Below, one piece after another: positions 1 through 58,963 of a stretch of DNA of 62,097 nucleotides. Numbering within the stretch: position 1 is the stretch's first letter; each line of letters starts with the position of its first letter. A program made the translations under genes and the position numbers. Source of the stretch: Candidatus Uhrbacteria bacterium (GTDB taxonomy: Bacteria; Patescibacteriota; Patescibacteriia; GWA2-47-26); contig JACPJN010000001.1 of the NCBI GenBank assembly GCA_016187515.1, forward strand, positions 1 through 62,097, read 5' to 3'. The notes below the pieces were generated by a model, which ran no database searches, was not told the origin of the DNA, and worked only from the letters and a program-made list of their open reading frames with translations.

Positions 1-117
1 AAACAAGAACTTATCCGATTCGTGAACTACTACAATACCGTTAAACCGCACAAAGGCATCAACAATCTTACCCCCATGGAACAACTAATTAATTACTTTT
101 ATCCGCAAAAACTGTGA
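1..117 (+). mobile_element. C-terminal fragment of an IS-type DDE transposase (rve integrase-core tail), cut by the window edge
   Basis: Frame 1 is open from base 1 to TGA 115-117. The translation KQELIRFVNYYNTVKPHKGINNLTPMEQLINYFY has the YN-x-x-(R/K)PH...TP tail typical of IS481/IS3-like transposases. Confidence 0.55.
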
Positions 118-147
118 ACAACGCGACTAAATCCTACAAATTATGGT

Positions 148-453
148 ATGAAATCCGCACTAATTACAAGACCAAACGATAAAGGCCAAATTGTCATTCC
201 TAAAGATATGACAGAGCAACTTGGTATTGGAAACAAAATTCCGCTTCATTTAGTAGTGATGGGGAATAGTATTTGTATTTATCCCGCTTGGAGGGCGTTG
301 AGCGCGATAGAAAGGGAAAGAGCGCCATCCTACATGAAGATTCTCGAAAAGACGAGAGGTGCGTGGGGCGACGACTCTGGGGAATCACTGAAAAAAAAGA
401 AAAGGACATTAGAACTGTCTGCCTCCAAAAAGCGACGACTTGCATGGTCATAA
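148..453 (+). CDS. AbrB/SpoVT-fold antitoxin (VapB/MazE-like)
   Basis: 101-aa ORF. The N-terminal GQIVIPKDMTEQLGIG resembles the AbrB looped-hinge motif. Its stop (451-453) overlaps the start of the PIN gene. Confidence 0.6.
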   Translation: MKSALITRPNDKGQIVIPKDMTEQLGIGNKIPLHLVVMGNSICIYPAWRALSAIERERAPSYMKILEKTRGAWGDDSGESLKKKKRTLELSASKKRRLAWS

Positions 454-830
454 TTGATACGAGTATTATTATCGATCATTTGCGTGAGCGGGGTGAACGA
501 GAGACCCCGCTTATGTCTATTGCGCGAACGATGCCGCGAGAGACGCTTTGTATTTCGATTATTACGATCCAAGAACTCTACGAGGGAAGGAGTACAAAAA
601 ATACCGAGAAAGAACAATATCTTCGCGTCACGATCGCTCCGCTTAGAGTTTTGGCGTACACGGATGAAATTGCTCAGTTGGCCGGAGAGGTTGCGCGAGA
701 TCGAACACAACCTATTGAATTTGCGGATGCCGCTATTGCCGCAACTGCAATTATACATAGCGCTTCGTTGTATACGCTCAATATCAAGGATTTTCGGGGG
801 ATTGAAAAATTGGAATTGTGGAAGCAGTAA
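444..830 (+). CDS. vapC: PIN-domain toxin VapC
   Basis: Internal ATG 444 of ORF 273..830. MVIIDTSIIIDHL... carries acidic residues in PIN spacing, and the gene overlaps the antitoxin by 10 nt. Confidence 0.8.
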   Translation: MVIIDTSIIIDHLRERGERETPLMSIARTMPRETLCISIITIQELYEGRSTKNTEKEQYLRVTIAPLRVLAYTDEIAQLAGEVARDRTQPIEFADAAIAATAIIHSASLYTLNIKDFRGIEKLELWKQ

Positions 831-837
831 GTTTTTT

Positions 838-2214
838 ATGGTACACAAAATTCCAAACGCGTACATAATCGCCGTCACCATGGGTTATGGGCATTTGCGT
901 CCGGCGTATGCTTTGCGCGACATGGCCGCACCCTTGCCGGGAATAAAAAAGCCGGAGCATAACGGAGTAATTTCCGCGGACGATTATCCGGGAATTCCAG
1001 AGGAGGACAAGAAGATGTGGGAAACGATTCGCAAGGGGTACGAGTTTGTGTCGCGGTTCAAGCGGATTCCGGTAATCGGGGACGCGACATTCAAACTGAT
1101 GGATCACATGCAAGAGATTGCCGGATTTTATCCTCGCCGCGATTTAACCAGGCCGATCTGGCAACTCAAGGCCACCGTGCGCACGATTGAAAAGAAACAA
1201 TGGGGTAAGCACTTGATCGCGCGGTTAAATAAGCGTCCTTTGCCGCTGGTCACTACTTTTTTTACCATTGCGCATATGGCCGAGTATTGGGGCTATCGCG
1301 GGCCGATTTATTGCGTGGTTACGGATACGGATATTTCGCGCAGCTGGGTCGCGCTGGATCCGCGGGGGAGCAAGATAATTTACTGCGCGCCGTCTTATCG
1401 GGTGGCCGAGCGGCTGAAACTATACGGAGTAAATCCGCGCCGAGTTTATTTAACCGGATTTCCACTGCCCAAAGAAAATATTGGCCATAATACGGAGGTG
1501 GAAATTTTACGGCGCGACCTGGCCGCGCGGATGCTTAATCTTGATCCGGCGCAGCGGTATTTGCGAGTTCACGAAAAGCACGTTGCCGAACGCTTAGGAT
1601 TAAAACGTTTACCGCTTCGCCCGACCCACCCCTTAACGCTGACTTTTGCGGTTGGCGGCGCCGGCGCGCAGCGCGAGATTGGCGCGGCGATTTTAAAGAG
1701 TTTGCGGCGGCACATTCTGGAGGGGCGCATCCGGGTGAATTTAATCGCGGGCACGAATGCGGAAGTGCGGGATTATTTTGCGGAGCGTACCCGCTTAACT
1801 TTACCCTCTGCTGATGGAAAGTTTGGCGGGGTGTGTGTCCAATTTTCAAAAACCAAAGCGCAGTACTTTGTGCAGTTTAATAAACTTCTGCGCACCACCG
1901 ACATCCTTTGGACAAAACCGTCCGAACTCTCGTTTTTTGCCGGGCTGGGTCTGCCAATCATTATTGCTCCGCCCATTGGTTCGCAAGAAGATTATAATAA
2001 GGCCTGGCTGATGACGCTTGACGCGGGGGTGCCGCAAGAAGATCCGAAGTACGCATCCGAGTGGCTCTTTGACTGGCTGCGTTCTGGATTTCTAGCCAAA
2101 GCCGCCATGGCCGGCTACCGCGAGGCCTTCAAATTCGGGACTTTCAACATTGAGCGGCTGGTCTCCGACCATCCGCGCGAGATGAAACTGGTGGAGACGG
2201 TTTCGCCGTATTGA
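838..2214 (+). CDS. GT-B-like glycosyltransferase (MGDG-synthase/MurG-like); function tentative
   Basis: ATG 838 was chosen because the upstream part of ORF 454..2214 overlaps vapC. The N-terminal IAVTMGYGHLRPA resembles the Gly-rich loop of MGDG-synthase-type enzymes. Confidence 0.55.
   Translation: MVHKIPNAYIIAVTMGYGHLRPAYALRDMAAPLPGIKKPEHNGVISADDYPGIPEEDKKMWETIRKGYEFVSRFKRIPVIGDATFKLMDHMQEIAGFYPRRDLTRPIWQLKATVRTIEKKQWGKHLIARLNKRPLPLVTTFFTIAHMAEYWGYRGPIYCVVTDTDISRSWVALDPRGSKIIYCAPSYRVAERLKLYGVNPRRVYLTGFPLPKENIGHNTEVEILRRDLAARMLNLDPAQRYLRVHEKHVAERLGLKRLPLRPTHPLTLTFAVGGAGAQREIGAAILKSLRRHILEGRIRVNLIAGTNAEVRDYFAERTRLTLPSADGKFGGVCVQFSKTKAQYFVQFNKLLRTTDILWTKPSELSFFAGLGLPIIIAPPIGSQEDYNKAWLMTLDAGVPQEDPKYASEWLFDWLRSGFLAKAAMAGYREAFKFGTFNIERLVSDHPREMKLVETVSPY
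1790..1831. repeat. Hairpin repeat element inserted in frame in gene 838..2214
   Basis: CCCGCTTAACTTTACCCTCTGCTGATGGAAAGTTTGGCGGGG is the reverse complement (few mismatches) of the intergenic copy at 49726-49767. Here it is read as LTLPSADGKFGG. Confidence 0.75.
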
Positions 2215-2292
2215 CCCCGCGCCTTAAGAATGGCCATGGAATTACTAAATATCCACTTGACAAATTATACGGGTAAATTGTAAAGTGGAGTT

Positions 2293-3462
2293 ATGCAATA
2301 TATAACCCGCGACGCCGAGCTGATTCTTGCCAAATTTCTTGCTACGAACAAGGTGCTTTTGGTATTAGGCGCGCGTCAGGTGGGGAAGACCACTCTCCTG
2401 GAGCATGAGCTGATAAAAGACCAGAGTGTGTTTTTGAATTTGGATATCGAGATTGATAAAGCACAGCTTACGGCGCGAGCCGCGCTTGCTCCTCCGGATG
2501 CGCTTAAAAGTTTGGGATCGCCCAAGGTGCTGGTAGTTGATGAAGCCCAGCGTTTCCCGGAGATAGGACAACTGGTGAAGGGGTGGTATGATACAAAGCT
2601 TCCGGTGAAAATCATATTACTGGGGTCTTCCAGCGTGAATCTGATGGATAAGATTGCGGAGGCGCTTACCGGCCGGAATGAAAAATTGTATCTTCCGCCG
2701 TTGACTTTCCGCGAAGTGGCGCGCGCGCAATCATGGTACAAGTCCCCCTATACCAAAACCATACTCCTCCAGAATTTCGGCAGACAACTCCAGGCAGTAA
2801 TGCGGGAAGCGCTGGTGTTTGGAAGTTATCCCGAAACCATTGCCGTGGCAGAGGCGCGCGCGCAGTATCTTTTGAATCTCGCGAGCGATTATGTGCTTAA
2901 AGATGTGCTCCAGCTGGGTTTGGTAAAATCTCCGGATACCATTCGCCGACTCCTGCTTTTGCTTGCGCATCAAATTGGAGCAGAGGTTTCCATTACTGAA
3001 CTCGCGCAAAATCTGCACCTTGCGCGGCAAACAGTTACGCATTATTTGGATCTTCTGGAAAGAAGTTTTGTAATATTCCGTTTGCCGGCGTTTAGTACCA
3101 ATCAGCGCAAGGAAATCGCGAAGAATAGCAAGATTTATTTTTGGGATACAGGGGTGCGTAACGCGCTCCTTAAAGAATTTTCCATAAGCGAGTTACGCGC
3201 GGATATCGGAGCGCTTTGGGAGAATTGGGTGGTTGCCGAGTTTGCGAAACAGAATCTTTTGGCCGGCGGAATGGATACCCTTTATTTTTGGAGGACCACC
3301 GCCGGAAGTGAAGTTGATCTGGTGATAAAAAGAAAAGGCGCTCTGCGCGCGTTTGAGATTTCCTGGTCAAAAAAGAAACGCACCCCGCTTACATTTACCC
3401 GTCTTTATAAAATACCGGTGGCTATGATTACCAGGGATTCATTTGGCGAGTATTTTCTTTAA
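2293..3462 (+). CDS. AAA+ ATPase with DUF4143-type C-terminal domain
   Basis: 389 aa with Walker A GARQVGKTT and Walker B LVVDEAQ. The C-terminal half has the layout of AAA_14/DUF4143 proteins. Confidence 0.8.
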   Translation: MQYITRDAELILAKFLATNKVLLVLGARQVGKTTLLEHELIKDQSVFLNLDIEIDKAQLTARAALAPPDALKSLGSPKVLVVDEAQRFPEIGQLVKGWYDTKLPVKIILLGSSSVNLMDKIAEALTGRNEKLYLPPLTFREVARAQSWYKSPYTKTILLQNFGRQLQAVMREALVFGSYPETIAVAEARAQYLLNLASDYVLKDVLQLGLVKSPDTIRRLLLLLAHQIGAEVSITELAQNLHLARQTVTHYLDLLERSFVIFRLPAFSTNQRKEIAKNSKIYFWDTGVRNALLKEFSISELRADIGALWENWVVAEFAKQNLLAGGMDTLYFWRTTAGSEVDLVIKRKGALRAFEISWSKKKRTPLTFTRLYKIPVAMITRDSFGEYFL

Positions 3463-3483
3463 AATATACTCTTGCGGCGCGCT

Positions 3484-3568
3484 TTGGGACTCTTAACATT
3501 GAGCGACTGGCGGCGGGGGAAGCTCATGCAATGAAGCTGGTTGAAACGGTCTCTGTCGCCGTATTGAC
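3484..3568 (+). pseudogene. Relic copy of the 3' end of a gene like 838..2214
   Basis: Translates FGTLNIERLAAGEAHAMKLVETVS, versus FGTFNIERLVSDHPREMKLVETVSPY* at 2134-2214. The frame is broken by a 4-nt indel before the shared TCGCCGTATTGAC. Confidence 0.75.
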
Positions 3569-3645
3569 TTTTTGTCAAGACCGCGTAAGATTAACCATTA
3601 ACTAAGCAGACAGCGATCGGAGCGGGCAAAACAAGCAATTGCAAT

Positions 3646-6129
3646 ATGCCTGAATATGGCGAACGCCATCGCGAGGGTGGCGAATCACACAATCCAGAAG
3701 CAAATTTATCCGCGCGACATCGGGAATTGTACGAATTAGTGCGGCAAGAGGCGGAAGCGCGGTCCGACTTGCCTTCCGGAACTTTTGAGTTTGAGCACTC
3801 GCGGCGAGGGTACGGGAGGGTACGCTGCGCGCCTGTCTATCCCGGAGATCGATACCTACTCGACGGATACTTTAGTGATGGATTAAGGGTACATTATGAA
3901 ATTCAACTGGACCTTGTCAAAGCTGGCGCGTCACAAGAACCACGCGTTCAAACGCGTGAAGGCGCGAAGGTGGGGACGCTGACTGCCACTCGGCTTGATC
4001 GCGGTATGAACATAGTGCTCACAGCCGAGGCCGCGGCGGTGCAGGATTTTCGCGGACGCCGGGTGATGCGTGATAAAGATGGAAATCCGTTTCAACCGGA
4101 CGGTGTGCATGTTAAAGATAAAAAGGGTCGTGAAGAGGTGATGACCCGTGCGCAATTTGAAAGAGGAGTTAAGGATTTGGATGAACTTCTTAAGCGCGCC
4201 GTAGAGTGGTGGAAGGTTGATAGAGGCGAAGTCGAAAAATCCCATGAATCCGTCTCTCGTCTTGCTGATATCAATACCGAGTTCAATCGGTGGCTTGATG
4301 AACAGGGCATTGACGATAAACTCAACCGGGTGGAGTGGCCCAAAGGGACGTTCGCCTTGGTTCAAGAAGGTAAGGTGCTTGGTCAAGGATCGGTAAGTGC
4401 GCCGGTCCATAATTTAGTCCTGGAGGCGCGCGCTGCTGATGGATTTACAGTACGGTACGATTTAACACGTGAATCCATAGATGAACTGAAAACACAAGCG
4501 AAGATTCGCGGTGTTGTGGAAACTACCTCGATTATACACGAAGGGAAGTTTAGCATAGCTACGGCTGATAGTCCGCAATGGGGTATCATTAAAGCAAGGG
4601 TTGTGCATACAAGATCATTTGATGATGCACACAAGCCCTGGAAACATGCGGATTCCAGTCAACCATTGTTGACGACATCAAATCTGCATGGCCGTTCGCC
4701 GGTGAGGTTCAAGGGAGACGGTGTGCATATTGCGCATAAAGATGAACGCCAATGGCGTAATCAATTACATGAGCTTCAAGAAAAAGTGTTCCAAGGACTT
4801 GGATTAGAGCGGGATTTTAGTACAGCGCGTCACTTATTTCAACATCAACCATATTTTTCCCAGTCACTCGCCTCTCTAAGAAGAGAACTTAAGCAAGAAG
4901 ACCCTAAGTTGGCCGTATCGCGATTACGTGAACTATGGGATGCGTTTAAAAATGAGCAAAAGGCGCAGAGGCGCGCGCGAGTACGGCAGACGGGCGACTC
5001 GTCTCGGAGTTCAATTGGTTCGTTCCCAGATCATCTTGACCCAGGACCTCCCCCTGCTGAAAGTAGGATGGACCATCAAGAGTATCGTGCAACGCTGGAG
5101 CGGGCGCAGCAGTTGATGCAGGCAGCGGTTGCGGAAGTTAAAAAGGGGAGATCAAGACCCGAAGATCCGGAAACGCCACCAACACCTGCCCCTGCCAAAC
5201 AAATTGCAAAACCAGAACCTGCGCATGCACCCGAGCGCAAGGAAGGCGAGCATAAGATGCGGTTTTGGCAATGGCGGTATGGGAAAGTAGTGCAGCATGA
5301 AAGGGGGCCAATAGCAGCTGGTAGTGAACATAATATTACAGGCATGAGCACGGGTGTGCCACGCGATCTTTGGCCTGCTCTGCTTCCCTCTCGGATAGGG
5401 ATCGGCGGTTCAGATGTTTATCATTGGGGTGATTATCCCTGGCGTGAAAAAGGCGGCGGGATTGTCAAGAAAACAGTCAGAATGAGCGGGGCTTCATATG
5501 TTGTATGCGCGCGGGTAAACGGCCGGTCAGAAACCGGTGAAGGGGTGCGTGGCCGTTTCTATACTGAAGCGCGCTATTGGGTAATTCCGGAAGATCAATG
5601 GTCGATTGTCGCCGTGGCGCAACTGGCAGATCGACTGCAAGCCGAACCAGCCACGGCTGAAGAGATGGAACGCACTCAAGGCAGTCTTGAGCCGGTTGAG
5701 ATGACTGACGCGGTATTTGATAAGCCGCTTCCGGACGGCTGGTTTGATGACACTATCCGACGTATGATTGAAAATCTGGTGGCCAAGCGTCCGCTTAATC
5801 TTCCTTCAACAACAACGTCAATCCAAACGTATCTGGAAAAATTGTTTTACACGCTCATCTGCCTTCCGGAGAACGCGGCAAAGAAGATTGATTTTGGGAC
5901 TGGGTTAATCGTAGGGCACTATCCTCATAACATTCCCATGGGGCTCAAGGTGGGCGGACTTATCACCGGACGCGAACAACTAGATCCTTTAACTGTAAAC
6001 GCGTATAGTCAGGAAGTAGCGGCACGCATCCAATCCTGCAAAACTCCGCGCGAGGTGATGAAAGCGGTGCAGGCAATTCCAGGCGAGCTTTTGAAAAAAG
6101 TGGAGCAGAATCTTGATTCGTTAAAATGA
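3646..6129 (+). CDS. Orphan 827-aa protein with an internal module duplication
   Basis: Long uninterrupted ORF with no motif I recognise. An N-terminal module is repeated: LPSGTFEFE...APVYPG...DGLRVHYEI...DGVHV versus WPKGTFALV...APVHNL...DGFTVRYDL...DGVHI. Confidence 0.7.
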   Translation: MPEYGERHREGGESHNPEANLSARHRELYELVRQEAEARSDLPSGTFEFEHSRRGYGRVRCAPVYPGDRYLLDGYFSDGLRVHYEIQLDLVKAGASQEPRVQTREGAKVGTLTATRLDRGMNIVLTAEAAAVQDFRGRRVMRDKDGNPFQPDGVHVKDKKGREEVMTRAQFERGVKDLDELLKRAVEWWKVDRGEVEKSHESVSRLADINTEFNRWLDEQGIDDKLNRVEWPKGTFALVQEGKVLGQGSVSAPVHNLVLEARAADGFTVRYDLTRESIDELKTQAKIRGVVETTSIIHEGKFSIATADSPQWGIIKARVVHTRSFDDAHKPWKHADSSQPLLTTSNLHGRSPVRFKGDGVHIAHKDERQWRNQLHELQEKVFQGLGLERDFSTARHLFQHQPYFSQSLASLRRELKQEDPKLAVSRLRELWDAFKNEQKAQRRARVRQTGDSSRSSIGSFPDHLDPGPPPAESRMDHQEYRATLERAQQLMQAAVAEVKKGRSRPEDPETPPTPAPAKQIAKPEPAHAPERKEGEHKMRFWQWRYGKVVQHERGPIAAGSEHNITGMSTGVPRDLWPALLPSRIGIGGSDVYHWGDYPWREKGGGIVKKTVRMSGASYVVCARVNGRSETGEGVRGRFYTEARYWVIPEDQWSIVAVAQLADRLQAEPATAEEMERTQGSLEPVEMTDAVFDKPLPDGWFDDTIRRMIENLVAKRPLNLPSTTTSIQTYLEKLFYTLICLPENAAKKIDFGTGLIVGHYPHNIPMGLKVGGLITGREQLDPLTVNAYSQEVAARIQSCKTPREVMKAVQAIPGELLKKVEQNLDSLK

Positions 6130-6160
6130 AACTCGTGGAAACCGTGTCGCTGTATTGACA
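6126..6160 (+). pseudogene. Second relic of the same gene 3' end (MKLVETVSLY*)
   Basis: ATGAAACTCGTGGAAACCGTGTCGCTGTATTGA matches the last 10 codons of gene 838..2214, with third-position differences. Confidence 0.7.
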
Positions 6161-6183
6161 AGATCTTACATCTGCGATATAAT
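6155..6183 (+). promoter_or_regulatory. Consensus sigma70-type promoter
   Basis: TTGACA (6155-6160), 17-nt spacer, TATAAT (6178-6183). The -35 overlaps the relic stop codon. Confidence 0.7.
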
Positions 6184-6256
6184 GGATTAATTATGAGGCC
6201 AGGGGCAGATTCGCCTTTGGCAGAGAATAAATCTTAAACTTAAATAAGGTCAGCAT

Positions 6257-6598
6257 ATGGGCGAACACGAATCAATAGAGAAACAATTAATCATTGAGGC
6301 CGCAAATAAGACGCTTAAGGCGCTTGATAACGTAATGGCAAGAATGGGCGAGTTGGGTAAGGGGGATACCTTAGGGCTTCGGCACGGCTCAAAGGGAGGC
6401 GGCCAAACTCCTTACGAGTGGATCAACACTCGGCATATTGTGGGGAAAGTGGACAAGGGTGAGCTTGCGCAGGTTCAATCTTCGTTACACAATATGCTTG
6501 GAAGCGAGCTGGCGCGGGCGGATAAAGAAGTTCATTCATCTTTACAAGACGCGCTTAATGCCCTGAAAGAAATGGAACAATTTGCGGTTGAAAAATAA
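6257..6598 (+). CDS. Hypothetical protein (113 aa)
   Basis: ORF downstream of the 6155 promoter. Helical/charged composition, no recognisable motif. Confidence 0.55.
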   Translation: MGEHESIEKQLIIEAANKTLKALDNVMARMGELGKGDTLGLRHGSKGGGQTPYEWINTRHIVGKVDKGELAQVQSSLHNMLGSELARADKEVHSSLQDALNALKEMEQFAVEK

Positions 6599-6620
6599 AA
6601 CCAATAACCAATAATGTTAT

Positions 6621-6902
6621 ATGGTCACCACCAATGATTTATTGGCGAAAGTGAATATACACAGTATTGCAGAAGAAGGAAAAAAAATTTATGCGCGGAT
6701 AAAAAACGAATACGATCCCAAGGAGAAAGGGAAGTTTTTGGCAATTGATATTGAGAGTAAGCATGGGTATTTAGGAACTACGAGTGCGGAAGCTCTGGCG
6801 CAAGCCCGCGAGCATCACCCGGATCGAGTATTCTATGTGGTAAAGATCGGATATGATGTTGCCGAAACAATGGTTCAGTCATTTTTGAAATTACACGCGT
6901 AA
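6621..6902 (+). CDS. Small partner protein of the downstream retropepsin-like protease (93 aa)
   Basis: The ORF ends 4 nt before the protease start, so the two look translationally linked. Confidence 0.55.
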   Translation: MVTTNDLLAKVNIHSIAEEGKKIYARIKNEYDPKEKGKFLAIDIESKHGYLGTTSAEALAQAREHHPDRVFYVVKIGYDVAETMVQSFLKLHA

Positions 6903-6906
6903 GTTT

Positions 6907-7272
6907 ATGGTGGAGGGGTACTTTGCGCAAGACATTCCTTTTGTACGTGTCAATCTTGCATGGGGCGATTCGATACAATCTCCATTTACGGTTTTAGATA
7001 CAGGGTTTACGGGTGACCTTCAAGTAACTCCCACTATTGCGCAAGAGCTTGGCCTGCAAGTTGCAGGAGTTATTCAGACGCAAGTTGCCAATGAGGATGT
7101 TGTTGAAATGCCTGTCGCGCTGGCCGTGGCCGGTATGGAGGGCATTTCGCGATATGTCCAAGTACTCATCTCCAATAGCATGCCACTTGCCGGTATCGGG
7201 TTGTTATCAAAATTTTCTTACAAAGCAATCGTTGATTGCCGAAAGATGACAGTACAGCTTGAGCGAGCGTAA
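6907..7272 (+). CDS. Clan AA (retropepsin-like) aspartic protease, DTGF type
   Basis: 121 aa. FTVLDTGFTGDLQV carries the D-T-G-F catalytic motif at the position and size expected for single-domain retropepsin-like proteases. Confidence 0.7.
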   Translation: MVEGYFAQDIPFVRVNLAWGDSIQSPFTVLDTGFTGDLQVTPTIAQELGLQVAGVIQTQVANEDVVEMPVALAVAGMEGISRYVQVLISNSMPLAGIGLLSKFSYKAIVDCRKMTVQLERA

Positions 7273-7387
7273 TGGTTTATGGCCGGAGCGGCGCTTATCG
7301 TCGCGACCGGTGTGTTTGTTATCAGTCTGCTTATTTTTATACTGTATTTTGTGTCAGGGGATTGATCCCGTTTGCGGTTCCCCGTCC

Positions 7388-7416
7388 TTGACTTTATCAT
7401 TATTTTATGATATAGT
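7388..7416 (+). promoter_or_regulatory. Promoter giving a near-leaderless mRNA
   Basis: TTGACT-N17-TATAGT. The -10 ends 8 nt before ATG 7425. Confidence 0.6.
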
Positions 7417-7424
7417 TTTAAACT

Positions 7425-8645
7425 ATGAGATTTGGTGATTTTTTCAAAGGGCGGGAGGGGCGCGCGGCTGCGGCGCGTCAGCACGAGGCCAAGCAGGCGC
7501 TGGGGGCAATTGATGCGATTGCCGATCCGGCGCGCGCTGATCTGGGCGCATTAGGTATTACCGCAAAGAATTTGCAAGCTGCTCTTGAAGCAGCTTCTTT
7601 GTCTTTAGAACAAGAGCGGAGAATACTCGCCTTGGCCAATCGGCCGGAAATTAAAGAACAATTGCCGCCGGTGGCGTATCCTGACTTAAAGCCCACCGCG
7701 CCGTTGCCGGACCGAGAAACCCTGGACGAAGCGCTGGAGCCGCTCAATGATCAGGAGATGGCGCGCGCGCTTGAAACATTTGGCGAGGATTTTGCAAAGG
7801 GTCGTTTGCCGACGTTTGTAATGGGCCACGTGATCGCGAGAAATAGTGTTCGTTTGTCCCCTGACCACTTGAGGGTGATGCCTGCTTATTTAAGGCCGCA
7901 GGCGGAACGCGACCCGGAGGGCACGCTTAGAAAACTATGGGACAGGACTTCCGGAGAATACCCGGTGTGGATTGATCGCTTGGTACCCGGTTACGATCAG
8001 GCGCGTCAGTATTTCGGACAACCTACTTATGATAGTTTAATGACCAAGCCGGGATGGGCATTTCCCGAAGGAGTTTATATACATGAGCGTTTACGCGCCC
8101 GTCCGGATGCCACTTTAGAGCAAGATCGGCAAGCCGTAGGAGGTCCGCAAAAGCGGGTCTGCCGCACTACTCTAAAAGATGTTTATTTGCCGCGGCAGAA
8201 AACCTATGAAGCCGCTCTGCCCCAGTCCCCAGCCCATCTTGATAAAAAACTGGGGAAAGTCGTGCGCGCGGTGGATCATGAGGTCGAAGCCGTAAAAATA
8301 CTGGAAATTCGGATTGCTGACAATACGCGAACAATTAGGACTGAACCGCGGTCGCAGTATCTGTCCGTTACCATACTGTTAGGTCCGAGCAATCGCGCGC
8401 AGGAAGGGCTTGCGCGGGAATCACCATATCGCACCTACTTGCGCGCGCTGCGCACCAATCCGGGATTTTTCCTGGAGGCGTTGCGGAAGCACGCGCCGGA
8501 GGTATTTGAGGTGGGCAATGGCCGGAAGTTTTATGGGGAAGAAGGGGAGCAGTGGGAGCCGGATATCATGACCATGCATTTGAACGTGCCCGAGCTTAAG
8601 GCCGTGGGCGAGCCGGCCGAGAAGCCGTTTCGGAAAATGAAGTGA
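7425..8645 (+). CDS. Hypothetical protein (406 aa)
   Basis: Long ORF directly behind the promoter. No recognisable motif. Confidence 0.65.
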   Translation: MRFGDFFKGREGRAAAARQHEAKQALGAIDAIADPARADLGALGITAKNLQAALEAASLSLEQERRILALANRPEIKEQLPPVAYPDLKPTAPLPDRETLDEALEPLNDQEMARALETFGEDFAKGRLPTFVMGHVIARNSVRLSPDHLRVMPAYLRPQAERDPEGTLRKLWDRTSGEYPVWIDRLVPGYDQARQYFGQPTYDSLMTKPGWAFPEGVYIHERLRARPDATLEQDRQAVGGPQKRVCRTTLKDVYLPRQKTYEAALPQSPAHLDKKLGKVVRAVDHEVEAVKILEIRIADNTRTIRTEPRSQYLSVTILLGPSNRAQEGLARESPYRTYLRALRTNPGFFLEALRKHAPEVFEVGNGRKFYGEEGEQWEPDIMTMHLNVPELKAVGEPAEKPFRKMK

Positions 8646-8654
8646 AATTCAGAA

Positions 8655-8684
8655 TTGGCAGAAGTTTGGCAGGTGTGGTATAAT
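8655..8684 (+). promoter_or_regulatory. Extended -10 promoter
   Basis: TTGGCA, 18-nt spacer, TGgTATAAT (TATAAT 8679-8684). Confidence 0.6.
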
Positions 8685-8729
8685 AACCCAATAACCCAAT
8701 AACCCAATAACCCAATAACCCAATAACCC
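8682..8729 (+). repeat. Perfect tandem octamer (AATAACCC) x6
   Basis: Six exact head-to-tail copies counted. The array starts inside the -10 box and ends 6 nt before ATG 8736. Confidence 0.95.
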
Positions 8730-8735
8730 AATCTT

Positions 8736-9167
8736 ATGTCTAAATTCATCAAAACCGGTTTAGTCATTTCCGGGATAATTCTTTTCGGCGCCGGGTGCGC
8801 GCGAGGGGCCAAGGATTACGCCGCCCCGACTGCCCAAGCCCCGGATACGGGGGCGAACGCCGTGGCAGAAGGGAGCGTGCCAACGCCGGAGGCCGTAATT
8901 GAATATACTGACGAGGGATTTAATCCTTCCACCCTGCGCGTACTGGCCGGAACTAAAGTTACCTTTGTAAATAAAGGGGCTAAAGCGGTCTGGCCGGCTT
9001 CCGGCGTGCATCCCACTCATGATATTTGTCCGGGATTTGACGCGGGAAAGACCTTGGCAGCCGGGGAGAGTTATTCCTATGTATTTGAACAGGAGGCCGA
9101 ATGTCCCTTCCATAATCATGTCGCGCCGGGTGAAAAAGGCGCCATTGAAGTTAAGGTAGCAAAATAA
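8736..9167 (+). CDS. Cupredoxin-fold lipoprotein (plastocyanin/azurin-like)
   Basis: Signal peptide with lipobox LFGAGC. The C-terminal half has His/Cys ligand-like residues (HPTHDICPG ... CPFHNH) in a cupredoxin-like arrangement. Confidence 0.65.
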   Translation: MSKFIKTGLVISGIILFGAGCARGAKDYAAPTAQAPDTGANAVAEGSVPTPEAVIEYTDEGFNPSTLRVLAGTKVTFVNKGAKAVWPASGVHPTHDICPGFDAGKTLAAGESYSYVFEQEAECPFHNHVAPGEKGAIEVKVAK

Positions 9168-9255
9168 AGGTTCCTCTGGCGATGTATATTTATTGGTGGC
9201 GGATGGTTCGATTGAATGTCCAACGTTCCTTAGACGGAAAAAATCAGGAACAAAC

Positions 9256-9546
9256 ATGAGCAAGCGCTCCGGAGGCAATGACATGGACAGCCAGCCATTT
9301 GATTTGTTGGAATTGACCTGCCAGCGTCTTTACAAATACGCGAGCGACGAAGATGCGGCTTGGCCGCTTAACGGCCGCGAGATTGCGGATATGATCAGGG
9401 CATGTATCAGCACGGGCAACGCGGATTTTGTCCGCGCGGAGACCGTGCGGGTCTTGCGCGAACTGAAGGAAAGAGGAATTCTCGCGGAAACCAGTTTTGA
9501 AACTGACTGGTATCGGCCGGGCCCCAACTTCACAACCCGTAAGTAA
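9256..9546 (+). CDS. Hypothetical small protein (96 aa)
   Basis: First ATG within ORF 9193..9546 (the ORF itself opens with TTG). Start uncertain. Confidence 0.45.
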   Translation: MSKRSGGNDMDSQPFDLLELTCQRLYKYASDEDAAWPLNGREIADMIRACISTGNADFVRAETVRVLRELKERGILAETSFETDWYRPGPNFTTRK

Positions 9547-9562
9547 AAGAGGAGGATAAGCG

Positions 9563-10333
9563 ATGGTCCAACTGCGCCTTGACAACTTGGCTAAACGCGG
9601 CAAGGTTCATCCCTTGCGTGTTTTGGAAGTTGTTGCCGGAAATACTCCGGGCGTTGATTCAGTTGAGCAGCTGCTCAACAGTCCGACCCCCGACAACCCC
9701 GGCATTGTAGATGGCCGTGCTTTGGCAATCTACCTGATGTTCCAAGGTAATTTGTGCGACATTGCGCTGCCGGATCTTGCAGGTGTCTTTGGCATCCAAC
9801 TCATGCAGGCGCGTTTGCTGTACATGAAAATTGCGCGCCGGCAGGATGCTGAACCCAAATTCAGGGCTGATCTTCAGCAGAAGGTTCAGCAACTGCAAGC
9901 AGCCGCAAGCGGGACAGCGGCAATACCGCAGACGACAGCGCCGCCGCCAGCCGCTGACGGCGAAGCCCCGGCAACTGTTCATGATGACAAAGTCGATATG
10001 GGTATTTTCGCGGCGGATGGAGAACCGATTGATAAGGTTGAAAAATGGCGTGTGATTTTTGCGGACGCGAGATTGGCGGGAAAAATAGTTGATTTCGCGA
10101 ATACGGAAATGATTGATGCGATCAATGCGGCGCTCAAACTGCTGCAGACGGGCCGGCTGCGCGACGATGTAAATGCTCGCCGGGCGGTTGAGCGCTTGCA
10201 CGCGGCAGGGGCGCAGATGCTTGAAATAGCAGAGATGTTTGCGGGGGAAACACCGCTGCAAGAGGCAGCCGGGGATCAGCATGGCGAATCACCGGCGGGG
10301 CAGGTGCATTCCGGGGACTCCGGAAGTTCGTAA
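9563..10333 (+). CDS. Hypothetical protein (256 aa)
   Basis: Strong SD (GAGGAGG) 7 nt upstream of ATG 9563. Ala/Pro-rich central linker. Confidence 0.6.
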   Translation: MVQLRLDNLAKRGKVHPLRVLEVVAGNTPGVDSVEQLLNSPTPDNPGIVDGRALAIYLMFQGNLCDIALPDLAGVFGIQLMQARLLYMKIARRQDAEPKFRADLQQKVQQLQAAASGTAAIPQTTAPPPAADGEAPATVHDDKVDMGIFAADGEPIDKVEKWRVIFADARLAGKIVDFANTEMIDAINAALKLLQTGRLRDDVNARRAVERLHAAGAQMLEIAEMFAGETPLQEAAGDQHGESPAGQVHSGDSGSS

Positions 10334-10407
10334 AGACAATCTCGGCCATAAGGCGGTGAAAGAGGGACACCGCCTCTTTATTTTCCCGGTCATTTGATTT
10401 GGCGGGG

Positions 10408-10436
10408 TTGACAAAAATAAGCCCGTATTTTATACT
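10408..10436 (+). promoter_or_regulatory. hrcA operon promoter
   Basis: TTGACA-N17-TATACT immediately upstream of CIRCE. Confidence 0.75.
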
Positions 10437-13653: not shown

Positions 13654-13850
13654 ACAGATGGCCACTGATGTTGGGCAGATAGCCACCGATCACGGATCAC
13701 CCCCTCTTAAGTTAAGAGGGGGTAGGGGGAGTTACGACAATTCACAATCAATCCCTCTCCCTCGCATGGGAGAGGGTAGGGTGAGGGTCGCGGGGATCCA
13801 CAACGATTTTCTCCCCCTCTTAAGTTAAGAGGGGGTAGGGGGAGTTATGA
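13654..13850. repeat. Cluster of short palindromic repeat units
   Basis: Contains GATGGCCACTGATGTTG...GATAGCCACCGATCAC (also at 48740-48805), two copies of CCCCCTCTTAAGTTAAGAGGGGGTAGGGGGAGTTA, and CCCTCTCCCTCGCATGGGAGAGGGTAGGGTGAGGGT. Confidence 0.85.
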
Positions 13851-13904
13851 CAATCACTCCGTCTTGTATTTTTCCACCGCCATGATACAATCCGGAATAC
13901 AATT

Positions 13905-14738: not shown

Positions 14739-14749
14739 TGTGCAATCAA

Positions 14750-14952: not shown

Positions 14953-15723
14953 ATGGAATTAATGTTTGATGAACAGCTTGCGATAAAGTATAAAAGCGCA
15001 TCACAAAGAGCACGCGTTTTAACTGAAAATTGGGTTGATAAATCAGTTTTTTGTCCTAATTGCGGACGTATAGATATAAATAAATATCCCAATAATCAAC
15101 CAGTCGCGGATTTTTTCTGTTCAAATTGCAAAGAAGATTACGAATTAAAAAGTAAGCAACATAGCATTGGCACAAAAATTCTTGACGGTGCCTATCGCAC
15201 AAAAATCGAGCGATTACGGAGCGATAGCAATCCTAATCTATTTGTGCTGAACTACCACCTGCAAAATTTATCAGTCCTTAATTTTTTTGTTATACCGAAG
15301 CACTTTTTCGTGCCAGGAATAATTGAGAAACGAAAGCCACTTGCGGCGAGTGCCAGACGCGCGGGTTGGATAGGTTCCAACATTCTTTTACAAAAAATTC
15401 CAAGAATCGGGAAAATATTTTTAGTGCGGCAACAACAAGTTGAATCAAAAGAGAAAGTACTTGCTGAATGGAAAAAGACGCTGTTCTTGCGAGAAGAAAA
15501 AGAAATATCCGCAAGAGGATGGTTATTAGATATCATGCGTTGTGTTGAAAAAATTGGGAAGCATGAATTTACCCTTAACGATGTTTATGAGTTTGAGAGT
15601 GAATTGGGTATACTTCATCCCGACAATAAACATATCAAAGACAAAATCCGTCAGCAATTGCAGGTGTTGCGCGATAAAGGTTATCTCGATTTCGTATCGC
15701 GCGGATATTATCGCCTGGCATAA
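14953..15723 (+). CDS. DpnI-family methyl-directed restriction endonuclease (Dam-replacing family)
   Basis: 256 aa. From memory it is collinear with R.DpnI: YKS.SQ.AR.LTE.WV...CPNCG, VADF.C..C...ELKSK, GAY, RKPL...ARRAGWIG.NI, and the C-terminal IK.KIRQQLQ.LRDK winged helix. Confidence 0.8.
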   Translation: MELMFDEQLAIKYKSASQRARVLTENWVDKSVFCPNCGRIDINKYPNNQPVADFFCSNCKEDYELKSKQHSIGTKILDGAYRTKIERLRSDSNPNLFVLNYHLQNLSVLNFFVIPKHFFVPGIIEKRKPLAASARRAGWIGSNILLQKIPRIGKIFLVRQQQVESKEKVLAEWKKTLFLREEKEISARGWLLDIMRCVEKIGKHEFTLNDVYEFESELGILHPDNKHIKDKIRQQLQVLRDKGYLDFVSRGYYRLA

Positions 15724-15726
15724 ATT

Positions 15727-15903: not shown

Positions 15904-15911
15904 ATAATTGT

Positions 15912-24650: not shown

Positions 24651-25229
24651 ATGGCGCTCGTTTCATTTCAGGAGTTTTTCCGCACGCACTTTGCAGGTGT
24701 ACAGGTACGGTCGCTGTATCTGACGATTCCGGTGCCGCAGCTGGGCGGGATCCTGGCCGCGCGCGAGCGTGAGACCGGGGAGCTTTTTGCCCAAGCCAGG
24801 GTCGCATCGTTCATCCCGGGGAAAGCGGGGTTCGCCGAATCAACCCGAGCGATTGAGGACGCACTGCGTTCATCGTGCGGGACGCTCTACAAGAATGTGC
24901 TCATCAGTTTGCCATGGGCGCGCGCGACGCAAACCGATCCGGTCGCGTTTTTTCACGAGTATTACGCGAGGTTTGCCGAGGCGTCTAATGTTCGGCAACC
25001 CAATCTTGACCTGGCATGGATGAGAGCAACTCCGCGCGAATACTTCAAAGCCCTGCTCCGTACCCTCGGGCGCGACCCAATGGATGTTTACGGTGCGCCA
25101 AATTCGGAGCGTGTTGACATCCATCCGACCGATCCCGAGCGCGGTTTGGTCAGTGCGCCGCCAAAGGTGCTTGCTCCGCGAGAAGGTGAAGTCCCCGCGC
25201 ATATTACCTATTCGCTTGTGCCGATCTAG
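24651..25229 (+). CDS. Hypothetical protein (192 aa)
   Basis: SD CAGGAGG upstream. No motif. Confidence 0.55.
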   Translation: MALVSFQEFFRTHFAGVQVRSLYLTIPVPQLGGILAARERETGELFAQARVASFIPGKAGFAESTRAIEDALRSSCGTLYKNVLISLPWARATQTDPVAFFHEYYARFAEASNVRQPNLDLAWMRATPREYFKALLRTLGRDPMDVYGAPNSERVDIHPTDPERGLVSAPPKVLAPREGEVPAHITYSLVPI

Positions 25230-31022: not shown

Positions 31023-31733
31023 ATGCCTACTTTAATATTCGACATCGAAACCGTGGGAGAGGAGTTTGATACGCTGGATGAGACGACTAAAGAGGGGCTG
31101 ACCCGCTGGATTAAGAAAGAGGCGGACAATGAGCAGGATTATCAAGCCGCGCTTAAGGATTTGAAAGAGGGGCTGGGCTTTTCGCCTTTGACCGGCCAGA
31201 TTGTGGCCATTGGCGTGCTTGATTTTGAAAAAGACAAAGCCGCGGTGTATTTCCAAGCGCCGGGTCAGCAGTTTGGGGATTTTGAAGAGGATGGCGTGAC
31301 TTTCCGCCAAATGACCGAAAAAGAAATGCTCCAGAATTTTTGGAAAGGCGCGAGCAATTATGATGAGTTTGCGACCTTTAACGGCCGCGGATTTGACGCG
31401 CCGTTTTTGATGATCCGCAGCGCAATTCATGGCTTGCGCCCGACTTTTGATCTGATGTCCAATCGGTACTTAAGCCGGCAGTGGCATGGGCCGCGGCATG
31501 TGGATCTCATGGATCAGTTAAGTTTTTACGGAGCCACGCGCCGGAAAGGAAGCTTGCATTTATATTGCCGCGCGTTTGGCATTAAAAGTCCCAAGGGCGA
31601 GGGGATCACCGGGGATGATGTTGGTCCGCTTTTCAAAGCGCGCAAGTTCAAAGAAATCGCGCGCTACAACGTTGGTGATTTGCGGGCTACGAAAGAGTTG
31701 TACGAGTATTGGAAAAAATATCTGGCACAGTAA
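31023..31733 (+). CDS. RNase H-fold 3'-5' exonuclease (PolB-exonuclease-like)
   Basis: LIFDIETVG (Exo I), TFNGRGFDAPFL (Exo II) and YNVGDLRAT (Exo III-like). Confidence 0.7.
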   Translation: MPTLIFDIETVGEEFDTLDETTKEGLTRWIKKEADNEQDYQAALKDLKEGLGFSPLTGQIVAIGVLDFEKDKAAVYFQAPGQQFGDFEEDGVTFRQMTEKEMLQNFWKGASNYDEFATFNGRGFDAPFLMIRSAIHGLRPTFDLMSNRYLSRQWHGPRHVDLMDQLSFYGATRRKGSLHLYCRAFGIKSPKGEGITGDDVGPLFKARKFKEIARYNVGDLRATKELYEYWKKYLAQ

Positions 31734-42844: not shown

Positions 42845-42933
42845 GAGGCGCCGTAGTACATCATCTCGGGGTGGGTCCCGTAAGACCCATCCCGCCTTTT
42901 TTTATCGCTGGATTTGTGGTAGGATTGAAAAAT

Positions 42934-43446
42934 ATGGATCACAAAATCGGAATCACGCTTATTGGCATGCCGGGATCTGGAAAATCTACCGTTGGCAAAT
43001 TGCTCGCGGCGCGCTTGGATTGGAAGTTTGTTGATCTTGATGCGCTGATATTGGAAAAAGAAGGGATAGGGCATGAGCAAATTCTTGCCGAGCACGGCGC
43101 GCAAAAGTTATTGGAACTGGAAAATCGCTATACGCTGAAGCTTGATATGAAGCACGTGATATTTTCTCCGGGTGGAAGCATAGTTTATTGCGCGCCGGCA
43201 ATGGAGAAACTCAAAATGGAAACGCTCGTCGTTTATCTTGATGTGCCGCTCGCGGAGGTGCGGGCGCGGATTGGAGAAAATCCAAAAAATATTCGCGGGA
43301 TTGTTGGCTTTGAAGAAAAAGGACTGGCTGGGCTTTTTGCCGAGCGGGTGCCGCTTTTCCGAGAGTATGCGCATTACACGATTCAAAGTTTGGGACGTGA
43401 TCCGCAGGATGTGGCGGGGGAGATTAAAAAGCATTTGAGTAATTAA
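42934..43446 (+). CDS. Shikimate-kinase-family P-loop kinase (substrate uncertain)
   Basis: ATG 42934. ITLIGMPGSGKSTVGKLLA...FVDLD matches AroK Walker A plus the DxD. It is embedded between aspartokinase and thrC. Confidence 0.7.
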   Translation: MDHKIGITLIGMPGSGKSTVGKLLAARLDWKFVDLDALILEKEGIGHEQILAEHGAQKLLELENRYTLKLDMKHVIFSPGGSIVYCAPAMEKLKMETLVVYLDVPLAEVRARIGENPKNIRGIVGFEEKGLAGLFAERVPLFREYAHYTIQSLGRDPQDVAGEIKKHLSN

Positions 43447-58369: not shown

Positions 58370-58963
58370 ATGCGGATTGGTTTGTTTATCGGCAGATTTC
58401 AGCCCCTGCACAAGGGGCATGTTTTAATAATAAAAAAATGCGGGCGACAGGTTGATCGGCTAGTTATTGGGCTGGGCTCTTCCAACGCGGAACTAGCTTG
58501 CAAAAATCCCTTTACAGCAGGGGAGCGGCGTGAGATGATCAGGAGAGGAATGAAGGAGGCCGGGGTGCGTAACTATGCGGTGGCGGAGCTTCCGGACTTT
58601 AAGAGTGATGCGGAGTGGGTAAAGGAGGTGTTGGAGCGTGTACGTGGAGTTGCTCCCACCCCTCCTAACCTCCCCTCGGGCAGGGGAGGAAAAATTGTTT
58701 CTCCCCCTTTTCAAGGGGGAGTTAGAGGGGGTCCAGCATCATTTGATCTCGCCTGGTCCGGAAGTGAGTGGGTGCAGCGCGTGTTTAAGGAAGAGGGTCT
58801 GCCGATCGAACCGATTAAAGAATTTCCCGGACTTTCCGCCACAAAAATTCGCCGCAAGATGTCCAAAGGGCTGCCCTGGCTAAAGTATGTGCCGCTTTCG
58901 GTACGCAAGTATCTGCGCGAGATCGGGGCGGTAAAACGCGTAAGAACACTATGCTCGCGCTAA
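58370..58963 (+). CDS. Nicotinamide-nucleotide adenylyltransferase (archaeal NadM-type) carrying an in-frame repeat insert
   Basis: GLFIGRFQPLHKGHV (the HxGH-type motif of cytidylyltransferase-fold enzymes) and a C-terminal SATKIR-like motif. Confidence 0.8.
   Translation: MRIGLFIGRFQPLHKGHVLIIKKCGRQVDRLVIGLGSSNAELACKNPFTAGERREMIRRGMKEAGVRNYAVAELPDFKSDAEWVKEVLERVRGVAPTPPNLPSGRGGKIVSPPFQGGVRGGPASFDLAWSGSEWVQRVFKEEGLPIEPIKEFPGLSATKIRRKMSKGLPWLKYVPLSVRKYLREIGAVKRVRTLCSR
58651..58732. repeat. Double-hairpin C/G-tract element inside the NMNAT gene
   Basis: TGCTCCCACCCCTCCTAACCTCCCCTCGGGCAGGGGAGGAAAAATTGTTTCTCCCCCTTTTCAAGGGGGAGTTAGAGGGGGT is read as APTPPNLPSGRGGKIVSPPFQGGVRGG. Confidence 0.85.

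Follow-up and report, generated by a model that had tools for sequence, protein, structure and literature searches.

The window, by which we mean the whole analysed stretch of 62,097 nucleotides, carries near its left end an intact DUF6938 gene. Homologues of its product are plentiful (7187 at E <= 1e-20, of 8000 candidates scored), the closest being 70–83% identical, with one close orthologue from Candidatus Uhrbacteria, and the orthologue consensus agrees with the C-terminus encoded in the window, indicating that the end of the reading frame is intact or has been restored. MazE/PIN lies upstream of the gene. Downstream, the 3' tip of the gene recurs twice in the same orientation. The three tip copies (A, B, and C) were found on the + strand where the preliminary description had placed them, to within one base, and a single plausible gene lies in each of the two intervals between them (2293..3462 and 3646..6129), as it had also proposed. 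The features of the locus are as follows.

838..2214, + strand: DUF6938 gene (Pfam PF22053), 458 aa, conserved in Patescibacteria, intact; left anchor of the putative hotspot
2134..2216, + strand: copy A, the functional DUF6938 3' tip (last 26 codons, stop, plus C), ending in FGTFNIERLVSDHPREMKLVETVSPY and the stop
2211..2229, + strand: truncated left terminal inverted repeat of a hairpin (MITE-like) element of ~135 nt, plus TTGAC; exact 19-nt match in L005, L010, L011, and L012
2257..2286, + strand: promoter-like site before the DUF4143 gene, TTGACA-18-TAAAGT (consensus match only)
2293..3462, + strand: cargo of module 1, AAA_14/DUF4143 ATPase (Pfam; PADLOC PDC-S01, E 1.9e-112, full length)
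3483..3568, + strand: copy B, an 85-nt remnant derived from the tip of a DUF6938 orthologue (FGTLNIERLAAGEAHAMKLVETVS, 4 extra nt, then TCGCCGTATTGAC)
3564..3591, + strand: promoter-like site, TTGACT-16-TAAGAT, its first hexamer provided by copy B's TTGAC
3646..6129, + strand: cargo of module 2, ORF for an 827-aa near-orphan protein
6126..6160, + strand: copy C, a 34-nt relic, MKLVETVSLY and stop plus C
6155..6183, + strand: perfect sigma-70 consensus, TTGACA-17-TATAAT (12/12 matches; best site in 11 kb)
6257..8645, + strand: four more genes (113, 93, 121, and 406 aa), none matching a family or bracketed by a tip copy
8736..9167, + strand: cupredoxin-like gene, right anchor (from comparison with relatives)
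9168..10400, + strand: second, separate insertion relative to L010, with ORFs 9238..9546 and 9563..10333, before the hrcA promoter and CIRCE element

The repeats were recovered when the 62-kb window was compared with itself (A/C, E 0.006; A/B, E 0.022), and the matches exceed chance expectation. Copy B was also matched by the last 30 residues of DUF6938 (tblastn, E 3.7e-7) and aligned to eight orthologues (tblastx, E 1e-5 to 3e-8). It contains a 4-nt insertion that shifts the reading frame just 5' of the final 13 nt, where copies A and B agree at every base; the B-type tip peptide reads …LAAGEAHAMKLVETVSPY and stop, and the copy with its insertion folds into a short hairpin with a T-run behind it. 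The ATG of copy C shares bases with the TGA that ends the 827-aa ORF (ATGA, 6126–6129), and its own stop codon is overlapped by the -35 hexamer of the sigma-70 consensus. GTATTGAC is common to all three copies and the 13 nt at the right edge are common to A and B, blocks that have the size of an att core.

The DUF4143 ATPase has a native C-terminus and a nearest homologue at 66% identity, and it corresponds to PDC-S01, a PADLOC single-gene defence candidate, which makes a defence role a candidate function. The only match to the 827-aa protein in a search of 5.8 billion proteins was the protein itself, and it has neither a Pfam nor a PADLOC name. HMMER returned 125 matches, all on residues ~480–823, suggesting that the C-terminal ~300 residues belong to an uncharacterised family, while the N-terminal ~500 residues had no relative in the protein and HMMER searches. 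The predicted model of the C-terminal domain (pLDDT 82.6) matched no fold in the PDB and, in a structure comparison of this domain only, did not appear to resemble solved recombinase folds.

The hairpin element at the end of copy A is present as a whole copy upstream of hrcA in relatives; in L010 its ends are 20-bp inverted repeats, TTGAC flanks it on either side, and its DNA fold z-score is -4.6. The window copy ends at 2229, and its inverted-repeat end (2214–2229) has no partner within 6 errors except a weak remnant at 10389–10408. Elsewhere in the window, at 31739–31792, there is a gene-tip relic of a DUF167 gene with a topology opposite to that of the DUF6938 relics. Rfam reported no structured element at gathering thresholds.

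Occupancy of the site and divergence of the tip copies

Relative to empty-site relatives, the window contains 6.5 kb of extra DNA (2215–8734). The preliminary description of two cassettes bracketed by gene tips holds for the two single-gene intervals, but the insert continues unbracketed past copy C to its right limit at 8734 with the four further genes, which are missing from L010 and other relatives and come with no additional tip copy. The comparison of orthologous loci that it had called for revealed a polymorphic site: in at least seven related lineages the site is empty, with DUF6938 followed directly by the cupredoxin-like gene and hrcA-grpE-dnaK. The cupredoxin-like gene starts about 45–170 nt past the DUF6938 stop (about 45–55 nt in most), and the intergenic space is occupied by an extended -10 promoter. 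Where the site is filled, different lineages carry different accessory genes. Because the accessory genes of the window are missing in close relatives and are separated by tip relics, they are probably foreign modules that were added successively at this site, each time with the tip of DUF6938 being copied or replaced in the process. Judged from these sequence comparisons, an insertion hotspot 3' of DUF6938 in a group of Uhrbacteria-like Patescibacteria would be the best explanation.

A second, independent occupied site with a tip relic was found in L035, whose DUF6938 orthologue is 71% identical. The insert comprises MazE, a truncated PIN, and a 614-aa orphan, all unrelated to the cargo of the window, and then a relic encoding MKSVETVSPY and stop (ATGAAATCAGTTGAGACAGTGTCGCCTTACTAG). 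This relic differs from the gene tip of its own locus by six bases in five codons with the peptide unchanged (p < 5e-5), and the homology of the relic begins no more than 2 nt from the Met codon of copy C. Its position at the same codon strengthens the case for the gene tip as a preferred joining point. The identity blocks in L035, AAATGAAATCAGTTGA and GTGTCGCC, are at the left of the repeat and not at TATTGA as in the window. The relic lies about 10 nt upstream of a -35-like hexamer, TTTACA (read by eye). In L014, a single inserted gene was found without a bracketing tip copy.

The tip copies in the window are diverged at 12–25% of bases, and the relics fit the tip consensus of the orthologue clade at 70–83% identity. 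The differences are almost exclusively synonymous: four of five between A and C (p 0.011), five of five between A and B over MKLVETVS (p 1.5e-4), and all six between B and C (p < 5e-5), with p values from simulations of random substitution. The non-synonymous changes between A and B are clustered in seven codons (VSDHPRE vs AAGEAHA), which vary among orthologues too. The concentration of differences at third codon positions, first noticed by eye, is thus statistically borne out (all p <= 0.011), and together with the orthologue matches it upholds the earlier proposal that the relics are 3' ends of orthologous genes diverged under protein-level selection rather than products of slippage. The substitution pattern shows that the tip copies evolved under coding constraint, as working gene ends in different genomes.

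A purely local origin, through slippage duplication, transposon target-site duplication or an assembly artefact, is hardly credible. Direct repeats do flank the inserts and copy A borders on a transposon-like inverted-repeat end; however, copies from a recent duplication should be identical and those from an old neutral one should differ at random, neither of which describes copies with 12–25% near-exclusively synonymous divergence. The layout is not an assembly accident, because an independent Logan contig (L003, listed in 10 samples) is 100% identical to positions 112–8711 of the window, nor is an assembler likely to have been misled, because the copies share too few identical bases, with a longest identical run of 13. 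A transposon with target-site duplication was rejected on the grounds that the repeats are diverged, that their 34–85 nt are far above typical target duplications, and that only one, cut-off, inverted-repeat end is present.

The preserved peptide could also mean that the repeated 33 nt is a functional unit, either a 10-codon mini-ORF (MK[LS]VETVS[PL]Y and stop) or a regulatory DNA or RNA element for the next gene. Copy C and the L035 relic are indeed intact ATG-to-stop ORFs with peptide-preserving changes, and the start of copy C runs into the upstream stop (ATGA). We consider this very improbable, since copy B is frameshifted and reaches 51 nt further upstream, no convincing ribosome-binding site was seen by eye upstream of either mini-ORF, Rfam gave no match, and empty-site relatives have the gene tip alone.

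Coding constraint would equally be expected if larger fragments with full DUF6938 xenologues had been inserted along with their neighbours and the redundant gene bodies then deleted, the last 34–85 nt surviving because further deletion would harm the promoter of the next gene. Such erosion accounts for the unequal relic lengths and for relics abutting promoter-like sites, and the DUF167 relic resembles a remnant of this type. Yet it needs several tidy deletions, one ending 20 nt past the DUF4143 stop and another precisely where the 827-aa ORF stops, and recombination between full-length copies would more readily remove the intervening cargo. The shared boundary is not explained by the promoter either, as the L035 relic is about 10 nt from TTTACA, while copy C and its -35 overlap. 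We regard erosion as improbable.

Proposed routes: tandem accretion at the gene tip or homology-anchored joining

Our leading, still tentative reading, to which we give somewhat less than an even chance, is that modules accreted in tandem at an att-like site within the DUF6938 tip. The two modules (the PDC-S01-type ATPase and the 827-aa near-orphan) would have joined successively, each by recombination within the last ~35–85 nt of DUF6938. Because the incoming DNA would bring its own copy of the tip, DUF6938 would be kept intact, and the earlier tip would be displaced downstream to become a relic ahead of the module that formerly lay behind DUF6938. In this presumed order of events, the junction at copy C, with the consensus promoter, would be the oldest and that at copy A the newest. 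The joining would most likely be site-specific, with a recombinase supplied in trans or since lost, and the modules may now be immobile remnants, like cis-mobilizable elements derived from tandem accretion of integrative elements.

Accretion accounts for the direct orientation of three tip copies around two single-gene intervals, the empty sites in at least seven lineages, and the relic boundary shared within 2 nt by L035 and copy C despite unrelated cargo. For efficient RecA exchange, 34-nt repeats at ~85% identity fall short in both length and similarity, which favours a dedicated site, as may the att-core size of GTATTGAC and the 13-nt A/B block. Moreover, there is a documented precedent (PMC5704250) for tandem accretion at a target gene's end with remnants that lack a recombinase. 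Several observations weigh against it. The left boundary of copy B differs (85 nt rather than 34 nt, plus an indel) and the identity blocks are placed differently in L035 and in the window. The four genes at 6257–8645 and the L014 gene are without a bracketing copy, DUF4143 genes in three other contexts showed no tip relics, viral contigs showed no gene-tip pattern, the truncated PIN in L035 suggests that the hotspot also undergoes non-specific events, and the DUF167 relic has the opposite topology in the same window.

The recombinase search also counts against accretion. As the preliminary description had noted, neither cassette encodes a recombinase: Pfam matched no tyrosine recombinase, serine recombinase or transposase in the 43 ORFs scanned in the window, that is, in the two cassette genes and the other 41, and the gene tables of L035 and other related loci have no recombinase next to DUF6938. 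Its wider interpretation, the footprint of an integrating element, is partly supported. The direct repeats, the empty sites, and the L035 relic agree with it, whereas movement of the modules by site-specific recombination is conjectural; neither an integrase nor an attP-bearing element was found.

Homology-anchored illegitimate recombination with DNA of relatives, for example in transformation, explains the layout almost as well and is nearly as likely. DUF6938 would pair on one side and the other side would be joined without homology, so that each module is a contiguous donor chunk from within the DUF6938 tip with the donor's downstream neighbour and promoter. The joints would fall in the gene tip because selection would eliminate any event that damages DUF6938 or the downstream promoter, and the empty-site gap, short (45–55 nt in most) and filled by a promoter, offers few viable insertion points. 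No recombinase is needed, in line with the search above. The order of each copy, its promoter-like site, and its gene is what native contiguity in a donor would give, the coding-constraint signature is simplest if the tips were resident gene ends, and the differing hotspot contents among lineages imply that suitable donors exist. Four features at or near the locus fit as signs of non-specific events: the 4-nt scar in copy B, the truncated PIN in L035, the DUF167 tip relic, and the inverted-repeat end of the hairpin element, which is severed precisely at the junction with copy A. The DUF6938 gene is available as an anchor, and the ATGA overlap at 6126–6129 would be compatible with a microhomology joint. 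Against such joining, three separate events would all have to fall within the last 85 nt, the same boundary recurs within 2 nt in two lineages (estimated chance about 0.03 for random placement in the last 150 nt), and the recipient DNA is duplicated whereas the usual outcome is deletion.

A bolder reading, which we think unlikely, is that this Patescibacteria clade possesses a platform for capturing cassettes. Its attachment site would be the final ~11 codons of a conserved housekeeping-type gene, and single accessory or defence genes would be inserted there by a recombinase encoded elsewhere or by a recombinase-independent route, the tip being renewed each time. If true, it would be functionally integron-like and mechanistically unrelated to integrons.

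Comparison with known systems

In E. coli, the prophages phage 21 and e14 integrate in the coding gene icd and supply a replacement 3' end. The icd end carried by the element and that of the host differ chiefly at synonymous positions, and the host end is left as a relic at the far junction. The synonymous-biased tip copies and the displaced ends kept as relics in the window are alike in both respects. However, these prophages have their own integrase and span tens of kilobases, whereas the modules here are single-gene units of 1.3 and 2.6 kb with no integrase.

Integrative elements and cis-mobilizable elements (CIMEs) accreted in tandem at the 3' end of a gene offer another parallel. The ICESt1-related elements of Streptococcus thermophilus integrate at fda. 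The DUF6938 site shares with such CIME accretion the tandem-stacked units, their lack of integration genes, the intact target gene, the empty sites in relatives, and the direct repeats from the target, which flank both intervals in the window (A, B, and C) and one interval in L035. It differs in that no related autonomous element or integrase of this specificity was found, each unit consists of one gene behind a promoter-like site of its own, the repeats (85 vs 34 nt) are 12–25% diverged, and the host is a Patescibacterium. The ICESt1-related elements are included in the reference list of PMC5704250.

Integron arrays and Xer-dependent modules (IMEX, pdif) resemble the locus in their recombinase-less, mostly single-gene units between short sites, with a cargo ORF that ends at or inside the site and units stacked at one location. 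Here, in contrast, the repeated site is the tip of a coding gene and the cassettes have their own promoter-like sites. An IntI gene was not found in the window, nor were attC-like or dif-like sites seen by eye, and an integron was rejected because no integrase was found beside the array, where MazE/PIN lie upstream of DUF6938, the repeat is a coding gene tip, and Rfam detected no structured element at gathering thresholds.

Homology-facilitated illegitimate recombination in natural transformation has been described in Acinetobacter and Streptococcus, and the described cases usually delete recipient DNA beside the anchor. The likeness lies in a conserved gene as one-sided anchor, short irregular joints, and no recombinase; the difference is that the recipient tip here is kept as a duplicate, repeatedly, and at the same codon in two lineages. 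Finally, the locus resembles defence and accessory hotspots in having a variable interval between core genes (DUF6938 and cupredoxin/hrcA) and in its contents, the PDC-S01 candidate, toxin-antitoxin pairs (L035), and orphans. Such hotspots are not usually reported with diverged tips of the flanking gene, whereas here the diverged DUF6938 tip copies would record successive additions.

Diverged copies of the DUF6938 gene tip

Gene 838..2214 encodes a DUF6938 protein of 458 aa (Pfam) with thousands of homologues, and the host of the window is a Patescibacterium; the sole close orthologue bearing a source name comes from Candidatus Uhrbacteria. The preliminary description had claimed that the 3' tip of this gene recurs twice downstream in the same orientation, which our searches confirmed.

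2134-2216, plus strand: copy A, the last 26 codons and stop of the DUF6938 gene
3483-3568, same strand as A: copy B, a downstream recurrence of the DUF6938 tip
6126-6160, same strand as A: copy C, a downstream recurrence of the DUF6938 tip

Self-comparison of the whole window matched A with C at E 0.006 and A with B at E 0.022. Copy B was matched at E 3.7e-7 by the last 30 residues of DUF6938 in tblastn, and its tblastx matches to eight orthologues had E-values of 1e-5 to 3e-8. The C-terminus of orthologues that are 70-83% identical follows the pattern FGTFNIERLV[AS]G..P..MKLV[EQ]TVSPY*, to which the relics (leftover gene ends away from the intact gene) conform. L003, an independent contig listed in ten samples, is 100% identical to window 112-8711, which excludes an assembly artefact as the source of the three-copy layout. 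A longer copy B, extending back to 3435 in a 40-codon tblastx match, was dropped: its 16 upstream codons have little identity and, judged by DUF4143 homologues, are the native DUF4143 C-terminus. A search for a fourth relic ahead of the cupredoxin-like gene (8600-8735) returned short, insignificant matches only.

The differences between copies were tested against random substitutions. Four of the five differences between A and C are synonymous (p 0.011), as are all five between A and B across MKLVETVS (p 1.5e-4) and all six between B and C (p < 5e-5), the last using up nearly all synonymous sites available. Between A and B, non-synonymous changes occur only in seven codons, and orthologues vary at these codons too. 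This pattern argues that the copies diverged while each served as a working gene end, and the synonymous excess (p <= 0.011) bears out the earlier claim of orthologue ends shaped by protein-level selection. Random changes would be expected of the neutral relic of a local duplication, a less likely origin. In a distance matrix of gene tips, the relics fall inside the close orthologue clade, but the segment is too short for naming donors. That the relics are full extra gene copies, later eroded, is also less likely. A donor of the second module described below would pair a resident DUF6938 tip ...LAAGEAHAMKLVETVSPY* with a homologue of the 827-aa gene next to it.

Cargo and occupancy of the site

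The intervals between copies had been described as holding one gene each. This holds for module 1 (A to B, DUF4143 ATPase gene 2293..3462) and module 2 (B to C, 827-aa gene 3646..6129), but the inserted DNA continues past copy C with four more genes.

6257..8645, past copy C: four more inserted genes, with no further copy at the right end

The DUF4143 AAA ATPase of module 1 matches PDC-S01, a PADLOC single-gene defence candidate, at E 1.9e-112. Relics are absent around DUF4143 genes in three other genomic contexts (L022, L023, L025-L032), indicating that the ATPase gene on its own does not form a site-specific cassette. For the 827-aa protein, a word-indexed search of 5.8 billion proteins found no relative, and an exhaustive HMMER search found 125, all matching the C-terminal ~300 residues only. 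Relatives of this domain (residues ~500-827, window 5143-6126) occur as stand-alone proteins of 350 aa or form the N-terminus of ~950-aa proteins; none of the 125 carries a family name, and the domain defines an unnamed family. Its model is confident (pLDDT 82.6) and has no fold match to any solved structure in the PDB, while the N-terminal model is unusable (pLDDT 37). The protein has no Pfam, PHROG, PADLOC or PDB sequence match. None of the 43 ORFs scanned across the 62-kb window matched a recombinase family, in agreement with the earlier observation that neither cassette encodes one. Neither two degenerate gene-tip patterns nor the DUF6938, 406-aa and DUF4143 proteins had a match in a viral collection, and an Rfam search of the window yielded no hit at gathering thresholds.

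The preliminary description had proposed checking relatives for empty or differently occupied sites, and both were found. In at least seven related lineages (P0004, P0007, P0008, P0002, P0010, P0020 and one further contig), the cupredoxin-like gene lies ~45-170 nt after DUF6938, followed by hrcA-grpE-dnaK, with the extended -10 promoter of the downstream gene directly after the DUF6938 stop codon. In the window, 6.5 kb separates DUF6938 from the cupredoxin-like gene (8736..9167), and an additional 1.2 kb lies ahead of hrcA. Occupancy of the site thus varies between lineages, with the empty state being ancestral. Relatives in which the site is empty or otherwise occupied were checked (L001, L002, L010, L014, L015, L021, L033, L034, L037), and no relic was found in them; one of them, L014, carries a single extra gene there. 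A perfect tandem repeat, (AATAACCC)n, occupies 8682-8729 between a promoter-like site and the cupredoxin-like start codon, and contig L003 ends within it.

A second lineage, L035, is an independent case and is filled differently. Its DUF6938 orthologue is 71% identical and ends in ...MKSVETVSPY*.

L035, in order: DUF6938, MazE, truncated PIN, 614-aa orphan, relic ATGAAATCAGTTGAGACAGTGTCGCCTTACTAG, nucleotidyltransferase/HepT toxin-antitoxin pair

The L035 relic encodes MKSVETVSPY*, sharing the lineage-specific serine of the L035 gene tip, from which it differs by six bases in five codons with peptide and stop unchanged. Its homology begins at most 2 nt from the Met codon where copy C begins. 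A functional mini-ORF is a less likely explanation of such relics. The L035 cargo is unrelated to that of the window, and its 614-aa protein has no similarity to the 827-aa protein. The MazE/PIN pair (L035 3332-3858, PIN cut to 78 aa) is ~50% identical to the pair at 148-830 in the window, which lies upstream of DUF6938, a position taken in several relatives by a 23S-rRNA-IVP gene; both DUF6938 flanks are thus variable. The gene tip is a recurrent joining point, yet the site is also filled in other ways.

A cut hairpin element and other relics and repeats

At the copy A junction, 2211-2229 (19 nt starting at the copy A TTGAC) is identical to sequence upstream of hrcA in L005, L010, L011 and L012, where it forms the left end of a ~135-nt hairpin (MITE-like) element; L021 is without it.

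L010 11927-12064: hairpin element in the hrcA -35, with 20-bp inverted ends, ACCCCGCGCCTTAAGAGGAC

The element has a DNA fold z-score of -4.6, gave chance-level matches only to Rfam, and is flanked on both sides by TTGAC in what looks like a 5-bp target duplication. The window retains only the first 16 nt of the hairpin end, directly after the DUF6938 stop and followed by unrelated DNA; these are 100% identical to L010, whereas DNA identity of the flanking genes is just ~73%. A search of 2.2-10.4 kb for the other inverted-repeat end returned noise-level matches only. The cut end indicates that a small TTGAC-targeting mobile element once lay exactly there and was then cut, and non-specific breakage and joining clearly took place at this junction.

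Another gene in the window has also left a tip behind.

31739-31792: DUF167 tip relic, MRIISGRTSRNKVVEII*, immediately past the stop codon of exonuclease gene 31023..31733

The relic corresponds, in diverged form, to the final 17 codons of a DUF167/PF1765-like gene, whose intact copy (~34043-34258) lies 2.3 kb downstream of the relic, beyond an abhydrolase gene and dnaJ; the order in L010 is DUF167-PrmA-dnaJ.

Several repeats were also noted. An 80-nt GC-rich palindromic repeat, reminiscent of palindromic elements inserting into coding genes, occurs in two 94% identical copies, at 11390-11469 in frame within grpE and at 58652-58733 within the cytidylyltransferase-like ORF 58370..58963, with a further copy in L010 between dnaK and a Bro-N gene. 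Short hairpin repeat families (e.g. CCCCCTCTTAAGTTAAGAGGGGG, CCCTCTCCCTCGCATGGGAGAGGG) lie mostly just past stop codons, among them the dnaJ and bipA stops.

13697-13854, 14749-14909, 33774-33818, 36507-36551, 45005-45047, 47534-47576: short hairpin repeats

Absent from L010 is a large variable region from dnaK/Bro-N to dnaJ (15000-31000). It encodes a DpnI-like restriction enzyme (14953..15723), has many ORFs without a family match, and contains internal repeats (20664-20944 with 24243-24542, 93%; 18095-18307 with 22156-22629). Within it, REYFKALLRTLGRDPMDVYG (25035-25094, in ORF 24651..25229) resembles the near-C-terminal region of shikimate kinase 42871..43446 (tblastn E 4e-4) and may be another displaced gene fragment.

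Two readings of the joining and their implications

The preliminary description had seen here the footprint of an integrating element. The recurrence of the tip as a joining point stands, but the mechanism leaves two close readings. Tentatively, we put first that accessory modules would accrete site-specifically at an att-like site in the DUF6938 tip, which we regard as possible. Favouring it are the use of a single codon as joining point in two lineages, the block GTATTGAC common to the three window copies, the tandem layout of the modules and the precise empty sites; repeats so short and diverged are also unsuited to RecA. Placed second, and likewise short of probable, is that chunks of relatives' chromosomes were imported illegitimately, anchored by homology. 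For import speak the failure to find a recombinase or attP-bearing element in the 43 scanned ORFs and the viral collection, the promoter-like site and gene that accompany every copy, the unequal relic lengths with a 4-nt scar within copy B, the inserted genes lacking a bracketing copy, the truncated PIN of L035, the hairpin element cut at the copy A junction, and the DUF167 relic, which belongs to another gene and has its intact copy downstream.

If joining is site-specific, tiny single-gene modules would be served in trans by a recombinase and attachment site; if not, the locus would be a clear natural case of homology-anchored gene gain using relatives' DNA. To our knowledge, little is known of how small Patescibacteria genomes gain accessory and defence genes, and few recognisable mobile elements have been described in them. 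The locus offers a readable record of successive gene gains beside a conserved gene. On either reading, diverged gene tips, recognisable where the final codons of a core gene recur downstream of it, provide a simple marker for hotspots and for donor tracing in metagenomes. Tandem accretion is already known, as is the duplication of gene tips at integration sites; new here are the recombinase-less single-gene modules, the one-codon recurrence in two lineages and the Patescibacterial host.
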